In this document: in pieces, positions 772 through 32,000 of the stretch
Numbering within the stretch: position 1 is the first letter of the stretch
How the letters are laid out: each line of letters starts with the position of its first letter
DNA from: Trichlorobacter lovleyi SZ
GTDB taxonomy: Bacteria; Desulfobacterota; Desulfuromonadia; Geobacterales; Pseudopelobacteraceae
Length of the DNA stretch: 32,000 nt
Direction: 5' to 3'
Assembly: GCF_000020385.1 (NCBI RefSeq)
Contig: NC_010815.1
Span: forward strand, 1 to 32,000
The notes under the pieces: model-generated
The model's database searches: none
What the model was told of the DNA's origin: nothing
What the model saw: only the letters and a program-made list of their open reading frames with translations
Made by a program: the position numbers and the translations under genes

Positions 772-839
772 CCGTGTTTAAAGTCGCTTGATCTCGTGTC
801 AACTCCCAGTCCCCGGAGAGTTTCATGATGTAAGATCAA

Positions 840-990
840 GGCAGGTCTTCTGACTTGCGAATCATCCTCCGGGCGTCTTCCCGATCAAATTGATCAGTGA
901 CATTGTTGCCCTTTGTCATCGCTTACAGCGGCGGGTCCGTGGAGGAGTTTCACCTCACTTCCCTATCAAGCCCGTATGGGCACCGTTGAT
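840..990 (-). promoter_or_regulatory. Cobalamin (B12) riboswitch aptamer, copy 1 (orphan, no ORF downstream)
   Basis: Minus strand reads GGUGCCCAUACGGGCUUGAUAGGGAAGUGAGGUGAAACUCC..GGACCCGCCGCUGUAAGCG..GUCACUGAUCAAUUUGAUCGGGAAGACG..AAGUCAGAAGACCUGCC. This carries the AGGGAA, GGUGAAA, CCCGC-CUGUAA and CACUG-GGGAAG core blocks and the 3' B12 box of classical cobalamin riboswitches. A TTGACT -35-like hexamer lies at 1063-1068, just after the cbiE stop. Confidence 0.85.
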
Positions 991-1079
991 CGTATATTCT
1001 GCTTCCGTCATGTAACAACGGAATATATTGTGGCAGACCATCTAGCACAGCACAAGATATAGAGTCAAGCAACTCGTTT

Positions 1080-13394: not shown

Positions 13395-13462
13395 GAGTTT
13401 TTCCTTTCTGATGTTTGCTTCTCTGTCGGCTTCCTCAACTCCATCTGTTTGAAATTTTGTAC

Positions 13463-13500: not shown

Positions 13501-13575
13501 ATCGTATTTAAAGTCTGACTAATCGAGGCGTACTCTCCCATTACCAGAGGGATTCTGTTGAGTGTTGAGATCATC

Positions 13576-13740
13576 GGCAGGTCTTCTGGCTTGCGATTCA
13601 TCCTCCGGGCGTCTTCCCAATCTAATGATCAGTGACATTATTGCCCTTTGTCCTCGCTTACAGCGGCGGGTCCGCGGGGGACTCTTTCCAAATGGAAATG
13701 CACCCCTCTTCCCTATCAAGCCCCTATGGGCACCGTGATT
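13576..13740 (-). promoter_or_regulatory. Cobalamin riboswitch aptamer, copy 2 (controls cbiMNQO and the cbi operon)
   Basis: Minus strand reads GGUGCCCAUAGGGGCUUGAUAGGGAAGAGGGGUGCAUUUCC..CCCCCGCGGACCCGCCGCUGUAAGCG..GUCACUGAUCAUUAGAUUGGGAAGACG..AAGCCAGAAGACCUGCC (B12 box). A TTGACA hexamer at 13812-13817 is a possible -35. Confidence 0.9.
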
Positions 13741-13829
13741 TGATTTATTTTGCTTCTGCACTGATTCGGCAGAATATGACGAACTGCGTTCCTAGCTGAA
13801 TAGTTGCGGCATGTCAAGAGGTTAGTCGT

Positions 13830-15984: not shown

Positions 15985-16272
15985 ATGATGGCGACCATGC
16001 GAACAAAGCGGAGTCCTGAGTTCAAGGCCAAGATAGCCTTGGCGGCTTTACGTGGCGACAAGACGATAAACGAGCTTGCCACCCTCTACAGTGTACACCC
16101 GAATCAGATCACGGCCTGGAAGCGTCAGGCCCAGGAACATCTGGTTGCGGTCTTTGACAGTAAGAAAGCCAAATCCTCCAAGGCTGATGAAAAGCTGCAG
16201 GAGGAACTCTATCGCCAGATAGGCCAGCTCAAGGTTGAACTTGACTGGCTCAAAAAAAAATCTGGCTTGTAG
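15985..16272 (+). CDS. IS3-family transposase OrfA (HTH plus leucine zipper)
   Basis: 95 aa. RSPEFKAKIALAALRGDKTINELATLYSVHPNQITAWKRQ plus the C-terminal heptad LYRQIGQLKVELDWLKKK are typical of IS3 OrfA. Confidence 0.85.
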   Translation: MMATMRTKRSPEFKAKIALAALRGDKTINELATLYSVHPNQITAWKRQAQEHLVAVFDSKKAKSSKADEKLQEELYRQIGQLKVELDWLKKKSGL

Positions 16273-17158
16273 CACCGCCCGCAAGCGTGAGCTGATCGAC
16301 TGGCGTCATCCAACGATCAGTATTGCCCGGCAGTGTGAGCTGCTTGGAGTAAGCCGCTCTTGCCTATACTATCATCCGGTTCCGGCTTCCAACGAGAACC
16401 GGCTTTTGATGCGGCTACTTGATGAGGAATACACCCGGCATCCGTTTCTGGGTGTCATCAAGCTCACCAACTGGTTAAGGAGCCAGGGATATTGGCATAT
16501 AGGCACCCGCAGGGTACGGCGACTGTTACGGCTCATGGGCCTGATGGCCATCTATCCCGGCCCGAATCTAAGCAAACCGGCGCCGGGCCACAAGATCTAT
16601 CCCTATCTGCTGCGCAACGTTGAGGTAGAGCGGGTTAACCAAGTCTGGAGTGCCGATATAACGTACATTCGGCTCAAGACCGGCTTTGTCTATCTGGTAG
16701 CCGTTGTCGACTGGTGCAGCCGGTACATCCTGGCCTTTGAAATCAGCATCACTCTGGAGGCCGACTTCTGCATCGAAGCGCTCCAGCAGGCGTTAACCAG
16801 AGGTACGCCGGAGATATTCAACAGTGATCAGGGCTCTCAATTCACAAGCCCTCGTCACACGGAAATTCTGCACTTGGCTGGTGTCAGAATCAGCATGGAT
16901 GGCAAAGGCAGAGCCCTCGACAACATTTTTGTCGAACGATTCTGGCGCTCGGTCAAATACGAGGAGGTCTACCTCCATGATTACGAATCAGTGCAAGAGG
17001 CCAGAATCGGGTTAAAGCGCTACATCGAGTACTACAACAACGAACGGCAGCATCAATCACTGGGCTACCAGACACCGGCTGAAGTCTACTTCAAAGGTCT
17101 GCTCAATGAAGTTGACCAACTGAAAAACAGGGACAACAACAGGCACGACCAAACTTAA
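16235..17158 (+). CDS. IS3-family transposase OrfB (DDE/rve catalytic domain), probably made as an OrfAB fusion by -1 frameshift
   Basis: DDE core (WSADITYI..., NSDQGSQFTS, ERFWRSVKYEEVY). OrfB is in the -1 frame relative to OrfA, and the overlap contains the A9 run at 16252-16260 (an A AAA AAA type slippery site). Confidence 0.85.
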   Translation: MNLTGSKKNLACSTARKRELIDWRHPTISIARQCELLGVSRSCLYYHPVPASNENRLLMRLLDEEYTRHPFLGVIKLTNWLRSQGYWHIGTRRVRRLLRLMGLMAIYPGPNLSKPAPGHKIYPYLLRNVEVERVNQVWSADITYIRLKTGFVYLVAVVDWCSRYILAFEISITLEADFCIEALQQALTRGTPEIFNSDQGSQFTSPRHTEILHLAGVRISMDGKGRALDNIFVERFWRSVKYEEVYLHDYESVQEARIGLKRYIEYYNNERQHQSLGYQTPAEVYFKGLLNEVDQLKNRDNNRHDQT

Positions 17159-17208
17159 AATCTTCAATTTGCTGTCTTGACAACCGTGAGTAGCTCAGTG
17201 TGCTGAGA

Positions 17209-18677
17209 TAGTCGTCCCTGAAAAAGTCCGGAATTTGCTCAGACGGTGTTGAGTTGAATGGGGGATAGTCTCCCCCAGCTGAGAAATGTCCGTTCTTTTA
17301 CAAGCCAAAATAAGAGGAGCTTGAGCAGCTTCCTCAGGTTGTACCCACAAGCGGCAAGCAGGGCGTTGATCTTGTCACCTTCTGCACCCTTGAGGTGGTT
17401 TCTGTCCATCCGGTGATCAACTTTCAGGTGACCGATGATCGGTTCAATGGCACTGCGTCTCTTGTACCATGCCCATTCACTGGGCTTCATGCTGCTCTTG
17501 CGTTTGTTGGCTAAGTGGACGGTGGTTCCGTTCAGTGAGCTGGGTACTCCCTTGTAGCCTTTGTCACAGTAGGCATTGCCTGGAGTGATGCCGGTTATCT
17601 GAGCTGCCTGTTTCAGCGCTCCCTTGAGCGTATGGCCATCATACGGATTACCATCCTTGGCCTGGGTACCGATGATCCAGTTGTCTTTTGATGTGCTGAC
17701 AATGGATACCTTGCAGCCAAATTCGTATTTCTTGTGACTCTTGCCCTTGGCGATGCAGCTGACTTCTGGAGCATGCAGGCTGTACAGCTTGTTTTTGTCA
17801 TGCTGCTTCTGGTTGAAAATTCTGCGGGACCGTTCAAGCAGGGTAGTCAGTGTCTGATCAGGATTTGCGATCTTTCTGAAAATGTCCCTGATGACTCGGC
17901 CCAGATAGATCTTGAGACGTTTCAGCTCCCGCTTGGCCCGATTCATCTGACGGGCATGCTTGTAACGTCCATGCTTGATGTAGGCCTTCTTGCCCAGACG
18001 CTCATAGCTCTGACGCAACTGAATGCCACGTTCTTTGGCAAGCTTGACCAGTGCAACCCGGGCCTTGTGATACAGTCTGGCATCAGTGGGATAGGCAATG
18101 GCCTTTTCCTGTACCGTGGTGTCTACGTTGACTCGCTCAAGTGACTGCGGTGTGATGTCGTTTCTACGCACAGCGGTTGCAATGGTTGCCTGTAGCAGTT
18201 TCTCTACCCCTTTGGAGCCGATCCGCTTTCTCCACTTTACCAGGGTGGTGGGATCAAGGGGCAGACGGTGCTGGAAGAATTCAAAACCACAGAAGTACTG
18301 CCAGTACGGATTCTCGACAAAGCGGGCAACGACTGATTCATCTGATTCGTTAAAGGCGTGCTTCAGGTAGTGCAGACCAACCAGCAAACGAATCGGTACA
18401 CCGGGACGGCCCATCTTGACTGAGTACAGGGGGCCAAACTCTCTTTCAAAGAACTGCCAGTCGATTTGATCTGCCAGACGATACAGTTCATGCTGGCGAT
18501 CGAGCATCTGATCAAGGCGGGAACGAAACAAGTCGCCCTGGTCAGAAATCTGAACTTTGGGTTGCATGAAATCACCGGAAATTGAAGGATGAACTACTAT
18601 TTCTGGTGATTTTATCAAAGTATAATGCAAATACAAATCAATAATTACAAGTTGTTATAATGCTTCAGGGACGACTA
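17209..18677 (-). mobile_element. IS5-family insertion sequence (about 1.47 kb)
   Basis: Terminal inverted repeats TAGTCGTCCCTGAA (17209-17222) and TTCAGGGACGACTA (18664-18677). The outer TA on each side could be part of the repeat or a 2-bp target duplication. It lies 16 bp from the IS3 right end and 95 bp from the receptor stop at 18773. Confidence 0.8.
17239..18567 (-). CDS. IS5-family DDE transposase
   Basis: Start placed at the ATG at 18567 (MQPKVQISDQGDLF...). It has an InsH-like N-terminal domain (GRPGVPIRLLVGLHYLKHAFNESDE), then the DDE region VDTTVQEKAIAYPTD ... CDKGYKG ... RSAIEPIIGHLK, colinear with E. coli IS5 InsH. Confidence 0.88.
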   Translation of the reverse strand: MQPKVQISDQGDLFRSRLDQMLDRQHELYRLADQIDWQFFEREFGPLYSVKMGRPGVPIRLLVGLHYLKHAFNESDESVVARFVENPYWQYFCGFEFFQHRLPLDPTTLVKWRKRIGSKGVEKLLQATIATAVRRNDITPQSLERVNVDTTVQEKAIAYPTDARLYHKARVALVKLAKERGIQLRQSYERLGKKAYIKHGRYKHARQMNRAKRELKRLKIYLGRVIRDIFRKIANPDQTLTTLLERSRRIFNQKQHDKNKLYSLHAPEVSCIAKGKSHKKYEFGCKVSIVSTSKDNWIIGTQAKDGNPYDGHTLKGALKQAAQITGITPGNAYCDKGYKGVPSSLNGTTVHLANKRKSSMKPSEWAWYKRRSAIEPIIGHLKVDHRMDRNHLKGAEGDKINALLAACGYNLRKLLKLLLFWLVKERTFLSWGRLSPIQLNTV

Positions 18678-18772: not shown

Positions 18773-20647
18773 TCAAAACCTCACCTGCACGCCCCCCAGC
18801 GCACGGATGCCGTCATCGGGATGTCCGTAGTGGTTCTGGTAACGGACATTACACAGGTTGTCAATTTTGGCAAAGATATCTGCCTTGATCTTTTTGTAGG
18901 TCAACGGCTGGGTAACACGAAGATCTGCTGTCAGATAATCGTTCATCTTCTGCATAACCAGATTCTCTGCTGGGCTATAGCGCACACCCTCATAACGGAG
19001 CGATGCTTCCAGGCGCGTTTTTACGTCTGGGATGGTGTACTGTGCCGTCGCCTTTAGCTTGATATCAGGCGTGTAGGGCAGGTCTTTTCCCGTATCCCGG
19101 TTTTTTGAACTCTGATAAATACACGACAGGTCACCGCTGAAACCGGATTCCCAACTTGATTTTGCCGTTACTTCAATGCCTTGCCGCTCGGCTCCGGCTA
19201 TATTGATCGGACGGTAGATAAGATCGGCGCCCCGTTGCGATGTGATCAGATCCCAGGTGTCTACTCTGAAAAGAGTGGCCTGAATCTGTCTGTTTTTGGC
19301 AAAACGGTACTCAAGACTCATATCGTATGAAAGCACCTTTTCGGTTTTTAGGTCTGGATTGCCCCTGCTTTGATCAATGGAGCCGTGTGTACTTTGATAG
19401 AGCTGTTCAAAGGTAGGAACATTGGTTACATAGCCAACCCGCATCTTCAGCAGAGTATTTTGGGTTGCAGCCCAACCAAGACCGAGCACCCCACCAGGGG
19501 TGAAGCCAAAATCATTAGTGATATCGCCACGGGCGCCAGCTGTTGCCGTAATATCTCCAAAACGTTTGTCAAACTGGGCATTCAAGCCGTTTCTGAACCG
19601 GTTGTGTCTTCCCGCCAGGCTGTGTTCATAATTATCAAATTCCGACATGCCGCCAAGCCGGAATTCCCACTTTTCTTGTTCATCAAGCCAACTGGTATCC
19701 AGCTTCAGGCCAACTTTCCGATCATCAAGAGTAGCGGTATAGCCCTGCTGAGATCTGTCCTTCAGGTTGAGCAGATCACCGTAGCTGTTCAGGGTGTAGG
19801 AGCCAGTCTCAAGCAAGGCCCCGGAAATGCGGCCATCAATCGATCCTTTACGGTACTGCTGACGCGCATTGGGGGTTTCATTGTCAATCGGCCCGGAAAC
19901 GCCGTATTCAGCCTGATAATAGCGCCCGTTGACCTCATATTTGTTGCCGTTTTTTATACTGCGATTCCAGTTGAGAGCTGCACTGCCATCGTTACGGTCA
20001 CTGTTGATACGTCTTCCATCACGGTGATTAAAGGTACCGGTTAGCAGCAGGTTGCCGTCTCCAACAGCCAAAGCCTGACTTGCGCTGGTCTGCAACAGGC
20101 CGTATGAACCTCCGGCAGCCTTAATGGAGCTTTTAAGCGTTTCCCCTTTGGTGTCACGCTTGATCTCACGGGTAATAATATTGATGGCGCCATCACTGCC
20201 GCCGGGACCCAGCCAGACCGGAACCGGCGGTTTAAATACCGTCACCGACTCAATCAGTTCGACCGGAATGGCATTCAGTTCCATCCCCCCGCTCTGATTG
20301 CTGTTCATGGGCCTACCGTTCAACAGTATCAGCACGCCGCTGGATTTCCCGGAGCCCCGGATGGCGATGCGGGTACCCATGCCGGAGGTTGGATACACAT
20401 CAACGCCAGGCATGGTTTTTAGAATCTCTTCCAAATTTGAATGGTTCCGTTTGATGATTTCAGCCCGAGTGACGTTGGTGACTTCCTGAGGATAATTTTT
20501 AATATACTCATCCAACCGGTCGGCAGTAACCACCACCTCGCCCAATGCGTAGGAGGATGGCGATCCCTTAACCGTTTCAGCAGCTACGGAACCGGCTGCC
20601 AACAGCACAACTGCTGCAGTTGGCAGTGCAATGGTACGATAGTTCAT
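18773..20647 (-). CDS. TonB-dependent outer-membrane receptor, BtuB-sized (624 aa)
   Basis: Signal peptide (..LLAAGSVAAE), TonB box GEVVVTA, plug domain, a long beta-barrel and a terminal aromatic residue (..GGVQVRF). It is the last gene of the riboswitch-controlled operon. Corrinoid specificity is inferred from context only. Confidence 0.85.
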   Translation of the reverse strand: MNYRTIALPTAAVVLLAAGSVAAETVKGSPSSYALGEVVVTADRLDEYIKNYPQEVTNVTRAEIIKRNHSNLEEILKTMPGVDVYPTSGMGTRIAIRGSGKSSGVLILLNGRPMNSNQSGGMELNAIPVELIESVTVFKPPVPVWLGPGGSDGAINIITREIKRDTKGETLKSSIKAAGGSYGLLQTSASQALAVGDGNLLLTGTFNHRDGRRINSDRNDGSAALNWNRSIKNGNKYEVNGRYYQAEYGVSGPIDNETPNARQQYRKGSIDGRISGALLETGSYTLNSYGDLLNLKDRSQQGYTATLDDRKVGLKLDTSWLDEQEKWEFRLGGMSEFDNYEHSLAGRHNRFRNGLNAQFDKRFGDITATAGARGDITNDFGFTPGGVLGLGWAATQNTLLKMRVGYVTNVPTFEQLYQSTHGSIDQSRGNPDLKTEKVLSYDMSLEYRFAKNRQIQATLFRVDTWDLITSQRGADLIYRPINIAGAERQGIEVTAKSSWESGFSGDLSCIYQSSKNRDTGKDLPYTPDIKLKATAQYTIPDVKTRLEASLRYEGVRYSPAENLVMQKMNDYLTADLRVTQPLTYKKIKADIFAKIDNLCNVRYQNHYGHPDDGIRALGGVQVRF

Positions 20648-27968: not shown

Positions 27969-30182
27969 TCAAAACTTGAAGCCCAGTTCTGCATAACAGG
28001 AACGGCCCGGCGCCAGGGAGGAAGAGTAGTAATGCTCGTCAAACAGGTTGGTGACAGCCAACGAGGCGGTGGCCCAGGCGGTAATTTTGTAACGCAACTT
28101 CAGGTCCACGGTGAAATAGGGGTCATTGCTGCCCTGTACGCCGTTGACGGTGTCGGTGTTGGTGTCGCTGGAATAGCGTTTACCCACATAGCGACCGGTT
28201 GCTGTGGCCCCAAAACTGCCGTAATCCAGATCAGCCCCCAGATTGAACATATGTTCCGGCACATCAGTTACCCGTTTGCCTACGGTTGCGGGAACTGCAC
28301 TGTTTTCCTTGATGGTTGCGTCGGTGTAGGTGTAATTGGCAAACAACCGCAACAGGGAGTCAAACTTCTGTTCTGCCTCAAGCTCTACCCCTCTGCTTTC
28401 GGCCTTACCTGCGTTGGCCTTGTCTTTCCAGGTGGGGGTGGTTGAAGTGCTGTAGATCAGGTCACTGATGTAGTTCTCAAAATAGGTGGCGGTAAATTTG
28501 GAACCTTTCCAGAGCCGCTGGCTGACACCTGCATCCCAGGAAATGACGGTTTCCGGTTTCAGGTTGGGGTTTCCGGCGTAGGTGGTGCCGCTGGAGGTGG
28601 TCCAGGTGCGGTAGAGGTCATACACTGTGGGCGCCCGAAATGCCTTGCCGCCGGATAATTTGAACGTGGTTGTGTCAAACGGTCTGTATACCAGCGCGCC
28701 TTTGGGGCTGAAGGCATCGGCGCTACGGGAACCGTAGGTTTGAGGATAGCCAACACTGCCGACCTGATTGGCATAACCGTCAAAGGTATCCCACCAGTCC
28801 TGCCGGAATCCGGCAAACAGGGTCAGTTTGTCCAGCAGAGCTATTTCACCTTCGGCAAACAGGGCAAAGGTGCGGTCGGTACCCTTTGATTCGTAGGTCA
28901 GGGCTCCTTTGGAGTTTTCATCCTGCCAGTTTGAGAGATTGTGCTCTCTGGAATGGGACCAGCCGGTGCGGTAGGCGCCACCCACGGTCAACAGATGCTT
29001 ATCCAGAATCGGTATTGAAGCCTGAATATCGGCATTAAAGGCGGCTGCCGGGGTATCGGACAGCTTGCCCGGCCCGCCGTTACGGGTACCGCCGTTGGGC
29101 GGCGCAGCCGAGGTGGGCGTGGTTCCCCAACTGGTCATCTGATCAAGATACCCCAGATTCAGCTTGTACTTGACCGTTGCCAGCTCTGTTTCAGCGCTAA
29201 ATCCATACAGGTGCTGATCACTGCCGCCATTTCCCCCGAGAAAGGATGCCTCCCGTACTGTGCCGTAGCTCCAGACTTCAGCGCCGCTACTGTTGCGCAG
29301 GTAGGTGGCCGGATTGTCGTAGGAATATTCGCCGGTTGACTTCATAAAAGTCAGCTTGAGCTTCGTATTGGAAGGAAGTTCGAGCTCTGCCTTGGCGGTC
29401 AGGTTGTCCTGCCAGGCACCGTTTTTGCCTTTGTCTCCCAGCCGATAGCGGGTTGCGCCGGTATAATCAGTGGTCGGCTCCCAGCCAGTGATACCAGCAG
29501 TCGGTTTGCTGCTTTGTACGTTGGTGTCACTGCGGTAGCCGTCGGTGGCCAGATAGTCGTTATGCAGGTAGAGTTTGATTTTCCCCAGATACTTGTCACC
29601 GTAGGAGGCGGCAACCCGTCTGGTATTTTGCATGCCGTTGGGACTGTCCAAAGCAAAACCGTAACCGCCAGTCAGGGTTAGTTCCCGCTTTTCAGGCATT
29701 CGGGTGATCATGTTGACCACCCCCCCCATGGCATATCCGCCGTAAAGACTGGAGGCCGGACCTTTAACCACTTCAATCCGTTCAAGGCTGCTGGGTGAAA
29801 TACCTACGGACACCACCGATCCGGCGTAAGGGCTGTTGATGGTAATGCCGTCCAGCATCACCAGCGTGCGGGACTGCCCCGGAATACCGCGCAGGGTAAT
29901 GGCAGACATCCGGTCCATCATCCCTTTGCCCCGAGTAGAGAGTACGCCAGGAGTGGTATTAATCGCCTCGTCTACTGTCGTGATATTCCGTTTTTCCATT
30001 TCCTCCTTTGTTACAACGGAGACACTGCCCGGTGCCGTTGCCAGATCCTGTTCAGTTCTGGTTGCCGTCACCACAACCTGTTCAAGCCTGGCTTCGCCAG
30101 GAACAGTCTCCGCCTGTGCGGTGCTGCACGCTGCCAGCGCCAGCCCCACCACCACGGCACACTTCTGCCTGTTTCTCTTCAT
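27969..30182 (-). CDS. TonB-dependent outer-membrane receptor (737 aa)
   Basis: Signal peptide (..ACSTAQAE), TonB box EQVVVTATR, plug (ITLRGIPGQSRTLVMLDGITIN), beta-barrel and terminal ..ELGFKF. It is the first gene after the tandem riboswitch leader. Confidence 0.88.
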   Translation of the reverse strand: MKRNRQKCAVVVGLALAACSTAQAETVPGEARLEQVVVTATRTEQDLATAPGSVSVVTKEEMEKRNITTVDEAINTTPGVLSTRGKGMMDRMSAITLRGIPGQSRTLVMLDGITINSPYAGSVVSVGISPSSLERIEVVKGPASSLYGGYAMGGVVNMITRMPEKRELTLTGGYGFALDSPNGMQNTRRVAASYGDKYLGKIKLYLHNDYLATDGYRSDTNVQSSKPTAGITGWEPTTDYTGATRYRLGDKGKNGAWQDNLTAKAELELPSNTKLKLTFMKSTGEYSYDNPATYLRNSSGAEVWSYGTVREASFLGGNGGSDQHLYGFSAETELATVKYKLNLGYLDQMTSWGTTPTSAAPPNGGTRNGGPGKLSDTPAAAFNADIQASIPILDKHLLTVGGAYRTGWSHSREHNLSNWQDENSKGALTYESKGTDRTFALFAEGEIALLDKLTLFAGFRQDWWDTFDGYANQVGSVGYPQTYGSRSADAFSPKGALVYRPFDTTTFKLSGGKAFRAPTVYDLYRTWTTSSGTTYAGNPNLKPETVISWDAGVSQRLWKGSKFTATYFENYISDLIYSTSTTPTWKDKANAGKAESRGVELEAEQKFDSLLRLFANYTYTDATIKENSAVPATVGKRVTDVPEHMFNLGADLDYGSFGATATGRYVGKRYSSDTNTDTVNGVQGSNDPYFTVDLKLRYKITAWATASLAVTNLFDEHYYSSSLAPGRSCYAELGFKF

Positions 30183-30360
30183 TACTTTCCCCCTCGGGTT
30201 GATATGCAGATGGAGCCGTCTTCCGGCTTAAGGCTACCTACTTACCCACCTTCCCAGGAATGCTCCCAGTGGTTGTTTCACCTCGTGGTGACGGGCTTTC
30301 GTTCCTATTACGGCTGCGGGGCAGCGGGGGTATTTAACCCCTCTTCCTCAACTCCATCTG
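30183..30360 (-). promoter_or_regulatory. Second, divergent cobalamin-riboswitch-like aptamer (30207-30360) plus SD region, in tandem with copy 3
   Basis: The minus-strand RNA is closed by a perfect 9-bp helix, CAGAUGGAG (30360-30352) with CUCCAUCUG (30215-30207). Inside it reads GAGGAAGAGGGGUUAAAUACCCCCGCUGCCCCGCAGCCGUAA .. CCACUGGGAGCAUUCCUGGGAAGG .. AAGCCGGAAGACGGCUCC. This is colinear with the AGGGAA-GGUGA-CCCGC-CUGUAA, CACUG-GGGAAG and B12-box blocks of the upstream aptamer. GAGGGGGAAAG (SD) and the AUG follow within 25 nt. Confidence 0.6.
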
Positions 30361-30375
30361 TTTGAAAACAAGCAC

Positions 30376-30413
30376 AAAAAAAGTCCGCCAATGCCAGAGC
30401 ATCAAGCGGACTT
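30376..30413 (-). terminator. Rho-independent terminator, expression platform of riboswitch copy 3
   Basis: Minus-strand AAGUCCGCUUGAUGCUCUGGCAUUGGCGGACUU hairpin followed by U7 (plus-strand A7 at 30376-30382). Confidence 0.75.
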
Positions 30414-30488
30414 TCCGTATTCAAAGTCGAACCGTTCAACCGGTTACTCTCCCTTTACCGTCGGGAACTGCGAGTAACAACAATCAGC

Positions 30489-30650
30489 GGCAGGTCTTCT
30501 GACTTGCGAGTCATCCTCCGGGCGTCTTCCCAATCTAAATGATCAGTGACGTTGTTGCCCTTCGTCATCGCTTACAGCGGCGGGTCCGCGGGGGAATAGC
30601 TCGTCAGAGCGTCACCCCTCTTCCCTTTTCACCCTTGCGGGCACCGTGAT
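30489..30650 (-). promoter_or_regulatory. Cobalamin riboswitch aptamer, copy 3
   Basis: Minus strand reads GGUGCCCGCAAGGGUGAAAAGGGAAGAGGGGUGACG..UUCCCCCGCGGACCCGCCGCUGUAAGCG..GUCACUGAUCAUUUAGAUUGGGAAGACG..AAGUCAGAAGACCUGCC. A TTGACA hexamer at 30739-30744 is a possible -35. Confidence 0.9.
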
Positions 30651-30752
30651 TCGTGCATATTCAGTTGTGTTTGTACTGCAGGTTGCCGGCTACCATCTTC
30701 ATAACCGGCTGATATCAAATGCCAAGTAATTTCGATGATGTCAATGACTATT

Positions 30753-31787
30753 TCATAGTTCGTCCCTGTGCAGGGCAACCTGGCTGCGGCTGGCCAGCAC
30801 GGCCCATGAATGGGAAGGGAGCTTGATCAACCTGGTATGCGTAAGGCCAACCTCCTGCAGCAAGGCGCTGGTGTCAATGCTGCTGTAACAGCGCCCGTTC
30901 CAGGTGTTGACCAGCATGTGCAGGTCGTACAGGGCACCGTACAGGTTGGCATCGCGAAAAAAGTCATGTACCACCAGCAGGCCGTCGGGGGTAAGCATCC
31001 CGGCTGCCTGTTCCAGCAGGGCCCCGTTCTCCTGCGGTCCATAGCAGTGCAACAGGTTTGACAGCAGTACCAGCCCCGCTGTGCCGTGGTGCGCTGCAGT
31101 ACAGGCGCTAAACTCCTGTTGATCCAGGATGTTGCAGGGCAAGACCGTCAGCTTGCCCGGCAGATCCTGGCACATTATCCGTACGCAGACATCCGGCAGG
31201 TCGCAGGCAATCCCCTGCCAGTCCGGATAGCGCTGGAGAAAAGCGCGGAGATAAGCCCCCTCACCAGCGCCGATGTCCATAATGATCCCCTGGGGCGGCA
31301 GCAGCGGCGCAAGGGCGTGCCACAACTCTGCGGAGCGGACACTGGCGGCCTCGGCCATGCTGGCCTGAAAAAGCTCCAGCCGCTTGTGGTAGGCATCCTG
31401 CGGTTGGGGCTGGGTCAGGGCCCCCTGTCCCTGTTGCAGGATAGTGCCGACTTGACGCCAGTTCTCGATCAGCAGCGGTTCAAACAACAGGGTGTTACGC
31501 TGATTTTCAGTGCTTGCGCGGCTGAGAAAGCGTTGGCTGAAGGGGCTCAGCCCCAGCCGGTCATCACGTTGTTGCAGCAGCCCAAGGGTGCAGAGCAGGT
31601 CCACAAACCGTCCGGTCTCGTCAGGCTGCAGGTTGAGGCAGTCAGCCAGTGCCGCAGGGGTGTCAGAGCCCGCCTCCACCGCATCAACGATCCCGCTGCG
31701 GACTGCCTCGGCCAGCAGGTAAAACTGGCGGTAGCCCGCGAGCATGGCGCTGAACCCGGCAAAGGAGTCATCCACAATCGGGATCAT
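30753..31787 (-). CDS. SAM-dependent O-methyltransferase (family-2 type with N-terminal dimerisation/winged-helix domain); BzaC-like candidate
   Basis: Start placed at the ATG at 31787 (MIPIVDDSFAG...), 7 nt after the upstream stop. The 45 extra ORF-track codons overlap the ThiC-like gene. SAM motif I DIGAGEGAY, plus LLSNLLHCY and the N-terminal LLAEAVRSGIVDAV...LGLL helix-turn-helix-like domain. Confidence 0.75.
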   Translation of the reverse strand: MIPIVDDSFAGFSAMLAGYRQFYLLAEAVRSGIVDAVEAGSDTPAALADCLNLQPDETGRFVDLLCTLGLLQQRDDRLGLSPFSQRFLSRASTENQRNTLLFEPLLIENWRQVGTILQQGQGALTQPQPQDAYHKRLELFQASMAEAASVRSAELWHALAPLLPPQGIIMDIGAGEGAYLRAFLQRYPDWQGIACDLPDVCVRIMCQDLPGKLTVLPCNILDQQEFSACTAAHHGTAGLVLLSNLLHCYGPQENGALLEQAAGMLTPDGLLVVHDFFRDANLYGALYDLHMLVNTWNGRCYSSIDTSALLQEVGLTHTRLIKLPSHSWAVLASRSQVALHRDEL

Positions 31788-31794
31788 GGCCTTG

Positions 31795-32000
31795 TCAGCA
31801 CTTGTCCCCGCACAGATGCTCCGCAAACAGCTTGCCTGCGCCGCGGGAGGCGCAGAAGTTGCCGCACATGGTGCAGGTGGCCTCATCCTCAGGGATACGG
31901 CTGGCGCGGATCGCCTTGGCATCCTCCGGGAAAAGGGCCAGTTCGAACTGCTTCTGCCAGTCCAGGTCCCGCCGGGCCTTGGCCATGGCCTTGTCCCGCT
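31795..32000 (-). CDS. ThiC-family radical-SAM-like protein, C-terminal end only (ThiC or its paralogue BzaF/BzaA); partial at window edge
   Basis: RDKAMAKARRDLDWQKQFELALFPEDAKAIR...ATCTMCGNFCA matches the ThiC C-terminus pattern (RD.A.SKAR..F.W..QF.LSLDPE.A ... CSMCG.FC). The frame is open to the window edge. Confidence 0.7.
   Translation of the reverse strand, partial: RDKAMAKARRDLDWQKQFELALFPEDAKAIRASRIPEDEATCTMCGNFCASRGAGKLFAEHLCGDKC

Follow-up and report, generated by a model that had tools for sequence, protein, structure and literature searches.

A cobalamin riboswitch tandem with probable transcriptional and translational control in the leader of a TonB-dependent receptor gene of Trichlorobacter lovleyi SZ

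Known tandem riboswitches and the receptor leader

Tandem riboswitches for adenosylcobalamin (AdoCbl) were reported in 2006 (Sudarsan et al.), and a survey published in 2022 counted 26 such doublets, classing them as 'pseudo-cooperative' (Sherlock et al., PMC9481103). A further kind of tandem, termed 'bi-mechanism', places a transcription terminator first and control of the ribosome-binding site (RBS) second; it is documented for doublets of S-adenosylmethionine (SAM) riboswitches, namely SAM-II/SAM-V and SAM-II/SAM-II (Poiata et al. 2009, via PMC9481103), riboswitch classes other than the SAM types not having been evaluated for it in that survey. Here we describe the 570-nucleotide (nt) leader of a gene for a TonB-dependent receptor in Trichlorobacter lovleyi SZ. 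It lies within the window, by which we mean the whole 32,000-nt stretch of DNA that was analysed (contig NC_010815.1, positions 1 to 32,000). We consider it probable that this leader comprises two complete, independent OFF riboswitches for AdoCbl-type corrinoids, acting in series, the first on transcription and the second on translation. The leader would be the cobalamin counterpart of the bi-mechanism tandems, and the tandem as a kind is therefore already known.

The whole window was scanned with Rfam 15 (cmscan) at gathering thresholds, the gathering score of RF00174 (Cobalamin) being 31.5 bits. Four matches to this family were obtained, all on the minus strand and all spanning model positions 1-189:

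30472-30663, minus strand, aptamer 1 of the receptor leader (107.3 bits, E 3.3e-26)
30197-30371, minus strand, aptamer 2 of the receptor leader (65.5 bits, E 3.1e-14)
13558-13752, minus strand, leader of cbiMNQO (105.4 bits, E 1.2e-25)
823-1003, minus strand, a further match (110.4 bits, E 4.4e-27)

The first two lie in the gap between an O-methyltransferase gene (30753-31922) and the receptor gene (27969-30182), and are the pair of independent matches expected from a preliminary description of the locus, which had proposed two tandem cobalamin aptamers. All leader features were found on the minus strand, at the coordinates given below, when the sequence from 29900 to 30900 was read.

In its general plan the leader resembles the surveyed AdoCbl doublets, which likewise consist of two complete riboswitches with their own platforms in one 5' untranslated region (UTR), with no open reading frame (ORF) between them and a gap below 300 nt, and for which pseudo-cooperative OFF/OFF behaviour is likewise predicted. 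The two matches belong to one ligand class and are separated by 100 nt without a credible ORF, against a permitted maximum of 300 nt, and presumably lie on a single transcript. The survey gives the AdoCbl doublets as a count only, and this locus, mixed platforms and mixed architectures are not described there. With the SAM bi-mechanism tandems the leader shares the order of events, terminator first and, as predicted, RBS access second, as well as the joining of two structurally different aptamers, presumably recognising one ligand, which are conserved as a pair. The SAM tandems differ in their ligand class, and in that both aptamers of the leader come from one Rfam family; they differ also in the second step, which there involves a pseudoknot including the RBS and here would be the cobalamin-specific kissing loop between L5 and L13. 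Full-text searches, together with Geobacter/Pelobacter genome papers and a delta-proteobacterial regulon paper, yielded tandem THI elements and single B12 elements, and not this tandem.

Two other accounts of the leader were considered and rejected. Coding of a leader peptide was one, the only candidates being mechanical ORFs of 23-53 amino acids (aa) within RNA helices. The other was a separate promoter between the aptamers, where just 15 nt lie between the terminal uridine tract of riboswitch 1 and P1 of aptamer 2 and no sigma-70-like site was found.

The upstream riboswitch and its terminator

Classification follows Chan & Mondragon 2020 (PMC7367189), in whose naming the hairpin between P1 and P3 is the P2 module. 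Class I (Cbl-I) has a P2 module and a large P6 extension, whereas classes IIa and IIb (Cbl-IIa/IIb) have a short J1/3 and a short P6; in class I the P6 extension builds the adenosyl pocket and the P2 module helps to shape the site (PMC7367189). Common to all classes is a regulatory principle, the ligand-dependent L5-L13 kissing loop (PMC7367189), in which L5 carries three conserved cytidines. The parts of riboswitch 1, in addition to the aptamer as a whole, are as follows:

30641-30632, minus strand, short P2 arm of aptamer 1 (CCC-GCAA-GGG, then UGAAA)
30585-30581, minus strand, L5 loop of aptamer 1 (ACCCG)
30504-30489, minus strand, canonical B12 box of aptamer 1 (AGUCAGAAGACCUGCC)
30444-30477, minus strand, P13/L13 hairpin (UUACUC...GAGUAA, with inner UCCC-GACGGUAA-AGGGA), present in the minimum-free-energy (MFE) and centroid folds
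30409-30428, minus strand, candidate antiterminator hairpin (GACUUU-GAAUACGG-AAAGUC)
30376-30415, minus strand, intrinsic terminator, a bulged hairpin of 16 base pairs (bp) followed by U7 (30382-30376)

Aptamer 1 aligns with the full RF00174 model without large gaps and fits class I on both counts, possessing the P2 module as well as the large P6 extension. Its core, comprising the four-way junction P3-P6, the B12 box and a C-rich L5, is canonical, and the module as a whole, platform included, shows about 78% column identity with the other two class-I riboswitches of the window. A hairpin equivalent to P13/L13 is kept in related leaders, and by analogy with the family (PMC7367189) it is presumed to be the kissing-loop partner of L5.

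The terminator folds with -20.4 kcal/mol (z -5.26), a stability reached by none of 200 shuffled sequences; it escaped a simple terminator scan because the hairpin has an internal bulge. Related leaders keep the lower stem, and their upper stem differs from one to another yet stays paired; AAAGUCC/GGACUUU, for instance, is replaced by AAGGUCC/GGACCUU. The terminator platform attributed to aptamer 1 in the preliminary description is thus confirmed by its stability, its U7 tract and compensatory changes, and the first element is followed by an intrinsic terminator, as in the bi-mechanism tandems. The 3' arm of the candidate antiterminator is also the 5' arm of the terminator, so that the two hairpins compete. 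Its sequence is kept in all aptamer-1 platforms, and the variants found in related leaders (GGACUUU/AAGGUCC and GGAUCUU/AAGGUCC) still pair; alone it is weak (-5.6 to -6.2 kcal/mol), and its antiterminator role is putative. As judged from its sequence, riboswitch 1 is an ordinary transcription-terminating OFF switch.

A contact between the two riboswitches was also examined, in which the antiterminator loop (UUUGAA) would pair with UUUCAAA upstream of P1 of aptamer 2. The pairing is perfect in the window and shows no covariation; in the leader L087 and in the cbiM leader UUUAAA faces UUUCAAA, so that the pairing is not kept, and it was dismissed as a chance match. The match at 823-1003 (minus strand) is a third class-I riboswitch, whose terminator module is the same as that of the others; downstream of it, to about position 400, there are more than 300 nt without an obvious gene start in the region examined.

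The downstream aptamer and the Shine-Dalgarno hairpin

Aptamer 2 begins 15 nt past the terminator U-tract and stops 11 nt short of the Shine-Dalgarno (SD) sequence GAGGGGG. It is a cobalamin aptamer with a fused P1-P3 arm, and its parts are:

30360-30352 / 30215-30207, minus strand, P1, a 9-bp helix (CAGAUGGAG / CUCCAUCUG)
30351-30349, minus strand, J1/3 (UUG)
30343-30326, minus strand, P4
30325-30313, minus strand, P5/L5 (GCUGCCCCGCAGC), with the C-run at 30321-30318
30272-30249, minus strand, motif of the P6 extension (CCACUGGGAGCAUUCCUGGGAAGG)
30229-30216, minus strand, B12 box (AAGCCGGAAGACGG)
30217, minus strand, G specific to the window within the B12 box (AGACGG), alignment column 228, identified by register comparison

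The 9-bp helix, the CCACUGGG...GGGAAGG motif, the B12-box-like strand, the SD sequence and the AUG were all found as the preliminary description had reported them. The deviation of the 3' half of the B12 box, to which it had also drawn attention, is real and mostly a family trait, the relatives having AGACCGCUCC; G30217 alone is specific to the window.

The architecture of aptamer 2 departs from that of its partner. In the Rfam alignment a single nucleotide stands in place of the P2 module (model positions 22-44), and the pairs of P3 are marked as non-canonical. The P2 module of class I is therefore lacking, as it is in the tandem-type leaders whose Rfam alignments were inspected, and all aptamer-2-type relatives have a J1/3 of 3-5 nt and no P2 module: UUG, UCG or UUU in Geobacteraceae-type leaders, and AAGAC, AAGUC or GAUCA in more distant ones. 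On the other hand, both aptamers align over model positions of about 82-165, CCACUG...GGGAAGG included, and the long P6 extension is present in all aptamer-2-type elements, its helices co-varying in aptamer 2. Because of this long P6 extension, aptamer 2 is not filed under class II despite its short J1/3. P3 is cut down to one or two G-C pairs; here the register given by Rfam (GAG/C-G) was set aside in favour of a GG/CC register with a 2-nt J3/4, which fits better, its two positions being paired in 11 of 11 and 9 of 11 leaders.

Among described riboswitches the closest in this respect is yvrC of Bacillus subtilis (Chan & Mondragon 2020, PMC7367189), which also mixes class-I and class-II peripheral elements and also falls outside Cbl-I, Cbl-IIa and Cbl-IIb. 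The two are reciprocal, yvrC having a P2 arm and a short P6, and aptamer 2 having no P2 arm, a J1/3 of 3-5 nt and a long P6, and the promiscuity of yvrC is not transferable to aptamer 2. No paper describing a P2-less, long-P6 architecture was found in the literature search; such sequences score within RF00174.

The conservation of aptamer 2 was assessed across leaders of orthologous receptor genes, gathered from a genome scan, a metagenome scan with a 17-protein alignment, and contig look-ups, and then scanned with Rfam. Eleven leaders with an aptamer-2-type element were aligned (MAFFT), and Rfam and RNAalifold pairs were combined into one structure. The core is near-invariant over these leaders (GGAAGAGGGGU, CCCCCGCUGCCCCGCAGCCGU, CCACUGGG, CUGGGAAGG and AGCCGGAAxAC), with P4, P5/L5, P6 and AGCCGGAAxAC invariant. 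Around it the helices change in concert: P1 is CAGAUGGAG/CUCCAUCUG in the window, CGGAUGGAG/CUCCAUUCG in L007 and the unrelated GCAGAAU/AUUCUGC in L049, a further helix alternates between GUCC/GGAC (6 leaders) and GCCC/GGGC (5 leaders), and the base of the P6 extension is A-U in the window and G-C in the others. Standard pairs occupy 94.6% of cells, against 37-54% when the 3' partners are slid, and two-sided changes occur at 18 of the 44 pairs, a number reached in none of 500 shuffles. None of the 500 shuffles matched the observed values for cells paired, cells with two-sided change or the covariation score either, and only the count of further pair types did not rise above them (263/500). Since its helices are paired and co-varying far above both slid and shuffled controls, aptamer 2 is, on this comparative evidence, a structure under selection and not a decaying copy.

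Downstream of aptamer 2 there is no U-tract, strong hairpin or terminator. What follows P1 is instead a small hairpin that holds the SD sequence:

30189-30198, minus strand, P13-like hairpin: CCC (30198-30196), loop GAGG (30195-30192), GGG (30191-30189), from RNAalifold
30195-30189, minus strand, SD sequence GAGGGGG, 6 nt upstream of the AUG and inside the P13-like hairpin
30182-30180, minus strand, AUG of the receptor gene

In the window CCC-GAGG-GGG is located 8 nt past P1. In the tandem-type leaders the distance from P1 to the corresponding element, YCGAGGGRG, which holds the SD sequence, is 8-14 nt, and the spacer is longer in two leaders that have aptamer 2 only. Conservation of YCGAGGGRG exceeds what an SD sequence requires, and across leaders it folds into a hairpin of 3-5 bp, with C-G as the middle pair in 6 leaders and U-A in 4 (CCC/GGG to CUC/GAG). 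The hairpin is also seen in two of the four aptamer-2-only leaders, as UUCUC-GAGG-GAGAA in L021 (in the MFE fold) and as AUCUC-GUGG-GGGAU in L018 (read from the sequence and not in the MFE fold). Opposite this element, L5 is GCUGCCCCGCAGC in 12 of 14 leaders, and the two exceptions alter the first loop C alone, to U in L018 and to A in L007, so that in every case the SD loop can form 3 or 4 G-C pairs with L5. Since the L5-L13 kissing loop regulates all cobalamin classes, and L5 can pair with the SD loop, direct occlusion of the SD sequence by L5 in the bound state is the most likely mechanism of riboswitch 2. The apparently translational mode given to it in the preliminary description is supported comparatively, by the absence of a following terminator and by a conserved and co-varying SD hairpin facing a near-invariant C-rich L5.

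Similar arrangements are known from the env8 HyCbl and Escherichia coli btuB riboswitches, where a short linker likewise leads from P1 to a small hairpin with the SD sequence in its loop or 3' arm and a C-rich L5 faces a G-rich L13. In env8 the L13 loop contains the SD sequence. The env8 riboswitch differs in belonging to class IIa, with a short P6 and with methylcobalamin (MeCbl) or hydroxocobalamin (OHCbl) as ligand, whereas aptamer 2 has the long class-I P6 and a P13 stem of only 3-5 bp.

The same region suggests a switch of opposite sign, in which an open P1 would let its pyrimidine-rich 3' strand (CUCC) serve as an anti-SD sequence, and ligand-stabilised P1 would free the SD sequence. When the last 37 nt only are folded, about half of the leaders do pair the 3' strand of P1 with the SD sequence, among them L049 and L093, which differ in their P1 sequences, and one activating corrinoid riboswitch has been reported (PMC10327014). 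These short folds omit the 5' strand of P1, however, and the fold of the full leader forms P1 and places the SD sequence in its own hairpin. Moreover, P1 is 9-10 bp long and is transcribed ahead of the SD sequence, complementarity is expected from the purine-rich composition of the one and the pyrimidine-rich composition of the other, and it would be senseless in regulatory terms for B12 to induce an uptake operon that lies behind a terminator switch turned OFF by B12. We regard such an ON switch as extremely improbable, and return to occlusion of the SD sequence as the basis for what follows.

Modular leaders and the serial mechanism

Leaders of orthologous receptor genes, given by their L numbers, contain the two modules in several combinations:

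Aptamer 1, terminator, aptamer 2 and SD sequence: the window, L001/L006, L002 (Trichlorobacter thiogenes, 96% protein identity), L010, L049, L056, L087, L088, L093
Truncated and consistent with a tandem, terminator and aptamer 2 retained: L007
Aptamer 2 and SD sequence alone: L012/L042, L018, L021, L032
Aptamer 1 and terminator alone: L003, L048, L090, L091
Two aptamer-2-type elements in tandem: L089
No riboswitch within reach: L008, L009

The tandem of aptamers 1 and 2 thus occurs in at least nine distinct loci among the orthologous receptor genes. In P0077, P0074 and P0105 the gap between exbD and the receptor gene is just 120-160 nt, too short for an aptamer. From its occurrence alone, each module can evidently regulate a receptor operon by itself, which argues for two complete serial riboswitches and not a dual aptamer sharing one platform.

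Two of the neighbouring arrangements deserve description. A class-I partner is missing from the L089 leader, whose receptor is 75% identical and which has two P2-less aptamer-2-type elements (982-1164 and about 1316-1480); after the first of these come CUCGCGGGAGGUGAUUCAUG and an ORF of about 29 codons, without a terminator. In the cbiMNQO leader of the window, the 25 nt after the terminator of the riboswitch at 13558-13752 (13430-13454, minus strand) read UUUCAAACAGAUGGAGUUGAGGAAG, which is identical to the start of aptamer 2 at 30343-30367 (5' strand of P1, J1/3 and GGAAG). The likeness ends about 35 nt ahead of the cbiM AUG (13394 or 13385), and by sequence these 25 nt resemble what an earlier tandem would leave behind, or a copied piece whose breakpoint fell within aptamer 2.

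The proposed course of events is as follows. Riboswitch 1, with its aptamer, P13, antiterminator and terminator, would decide cotranscriptionally whether RNA polymerase stops at U7, 15 nt before aptamer 2, and transcripts that read through would contain riboswitch 2. In ligand-bound aptamer 2, the CCCC of L5 would dock on the P13-like hairpin, in which the SD sequence GAGGGGG makes up the loop and the 3' arm, and binding of the 30S subunit would thereby be blocked, the kissing-loop principle being that of env8 and E. coli btuB. Output would then approximate the product of two unbound fractions, with lower leak and a steeper response ('pseudo-cooperative'), and riboswitch 2 would in addition restrain, reversibly and post-transcriptionally, those mRNAs that already existed when B12 rose ('bi-mechanism'). 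The double gating put forward in the preliminary description, at transcription and then at translation, is supported by the comparative evidence.

Several observations weigh against this serial mechanism. The promoter scan found no site on the upstream side either. The SD hairpin is weak alone (-4.5 kcal/mol, only 3 bp in the window) and not significant, although such weakness is as expected if a ligand-dependent kissing loop is needed. Aptamer 2 has no P2 arm, and since P2 helps to shape the class-I pocket, affinity or selectivity may differ from those of class I. Rho-dependent effects could contribute to the second step. Finally, column 228 is G only in the window, against C in nine of ten relatives and A in one (L049), and in the GG/CC register G30217 puts G.G in place of the short P3's second G-C pair, which 9 of 11 leaders retain.

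The last observation raises the question of whether aptamer 2 is impaired or a relic in the window genome, owing to G30217 or the reduced P3, folding and resembling its family as before but no longer switching, with regulation left to riboswitch 1 alone. The substitution, found in no other of the 11 leaders, disrupts pairing of P3 within the strand that is most conserved, and relics do occur nearby, as the first 25 nt of an aptamer-2-type element retained in the cbiM leader attest. Yet the remaining core positions are all intact, as are the SD hairpin and L5; column 228 varies in L049 too, and the Rfam score is not depressed, 65.5 bits lying within the 54.7-68.5 bits of relatives. We consider loss of function very unlikely, and a working second riboswitch remains the preferred account.

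A different question is whether both aptamers work with differing corrinoid selectivity, so that either of two corrinoid pools would shut the operon. Aptamer 1 might, for example, be selective for complete base-on AdoCbl, and promiscuity, or a preference for another cobamide, cobinamide, or MeCbl/OHCbl, might mark the P2-less aptamer 2. The architectures do differ, the P2 arm being present in one and absent from the other and P3 canonical in one and reduced in the other, and this heterotypic pairing is kept in the nine or more distinct loci counted above. Peripheral elements correlate with selectivity, the hybrid yvrC being promiscuous (PMC7367189), and cobalamin riboswitches range from semiselective to promiscuous for lower-ligand variants (PMC9600662). 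Against this, both aptamers have the full P6 extension with CCACUG...GGGAAG, the class-I adenosyl pocket motif, a single module suffices in orthologous operons, and L089, which pairs two aptamer-2-type elements, is a better fit to one ligand and a sharper response. Such a two-input gate seems unlikely to us, and the two different corrinoid inputs suggested in the preliminary description remain speculation; two OFF riboswitches for AdoCbl-type corrinoids are the reading retained here.

Large insertions lie inside otherwise intact aptamers of L002 (3397-3702), L056 (2253-2485) and L032 (1998-2310): about 110 nt occupy the P4 loop of aptamer 1 in L002 (T. thiogenes), whereas L056 and L032 have 50-150 nt within the aptamer-2 P6 extension, in its variable hairpin. 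The insertions of L002 and L032 are similar (…GGCGGCGAGGAA…GACGA…GCGUACA…), a pattern suggestive of a small repeat element inserting into riboswitch loops. Between L010 and L087, identity is 97.9% from the leader through roughly the first 220 nt of the receptor gene, after which about 1.4 kb is unalignable (blastn) before identity resumes at 89.8%; by this comparison the receptor gene is mosaic, with the tandem leader shared.

The first regulated gene encodes a TonB-dependent receptor of 737 aa (27969-30182, minus strand, Pfam). The cluster continues to 18773 with, in order by Pfam, DUF2162, a MotA/ExbB-like protein, DUF2149, a CobN-like chelatase subunit (1366 aa), ExbB, ExbD, TonB and a second TonB-dependent receptor. 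The receptors at 27969-30182 and 18773-20647 score 203 and 137 bits, against a BtuB equivalog cut-off of 599.7 bits (NCBIfam); the first falls under every NCBIfam equivalog cut-off, BtuB included, the CobN-like protein is likewise under the equivalog cut-offs, and no NCBIfam model matched the DUF2162 and DUF2149 proteins. A role in corrinoid salvage is plausible, and the name 'salvage operon', applied in the preliminary description, is unproven for an operon whose receptor scores in this way. The window also houses a riboswitch-controlled cbiMNQO/cysG/cbiA cluster and insertion sequence (IS) elements, two IS-type genes lying between the cbiM cluster and the receptor/CobN operon (16235-18636):

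16235-17158, plus strand, rve integrase (IS-type)
17239-18636, minus strand, DDE/DUF772 transposase (IS-type)

DNA identity of the region to T. thiogenes is about 91%. A plasmid origin was rejected, a PLSDB megablast with 29000-31900 having returned no match.

It is doubtful that aptamer 2, with its fused P1-P3 arm, absence of P2 and full class-I P6, is an undescribed subclass with a selectivity unlike its partner's, and the tandem a two-input gate for TonB-dependent uptake and CobN-chelatase functions in Geobacteraceae and relatives; if this were true, the gate would distinguish, for example, complete from incomplete or base-off corrinoids. Tandems for one ligand are thought to sharpen the dose-response, those of the bi-mechanism form being credited with a reversible post-transcriptional brake as well; direct tests of these effects are few. 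Orthologous operons with riboswitch 1 only, 2 only, 1 and 2, or 2 and 2 make a natural comparison set for the contribution of each layer, and the conserved P2-less, long-P6 aptamer is useful for probing how far affinity and corrinoid selectivity depend on the P2 module. The locus is well conserved and modular among orthologues, pairing a class-I aptamer with a P2-less, long-P6 variant, and for annotation it would mean that B12 controls the TonB-receptor/CobN cluster unusually tightly in this lineage, a close one to Trichlorobacter thiogenes.

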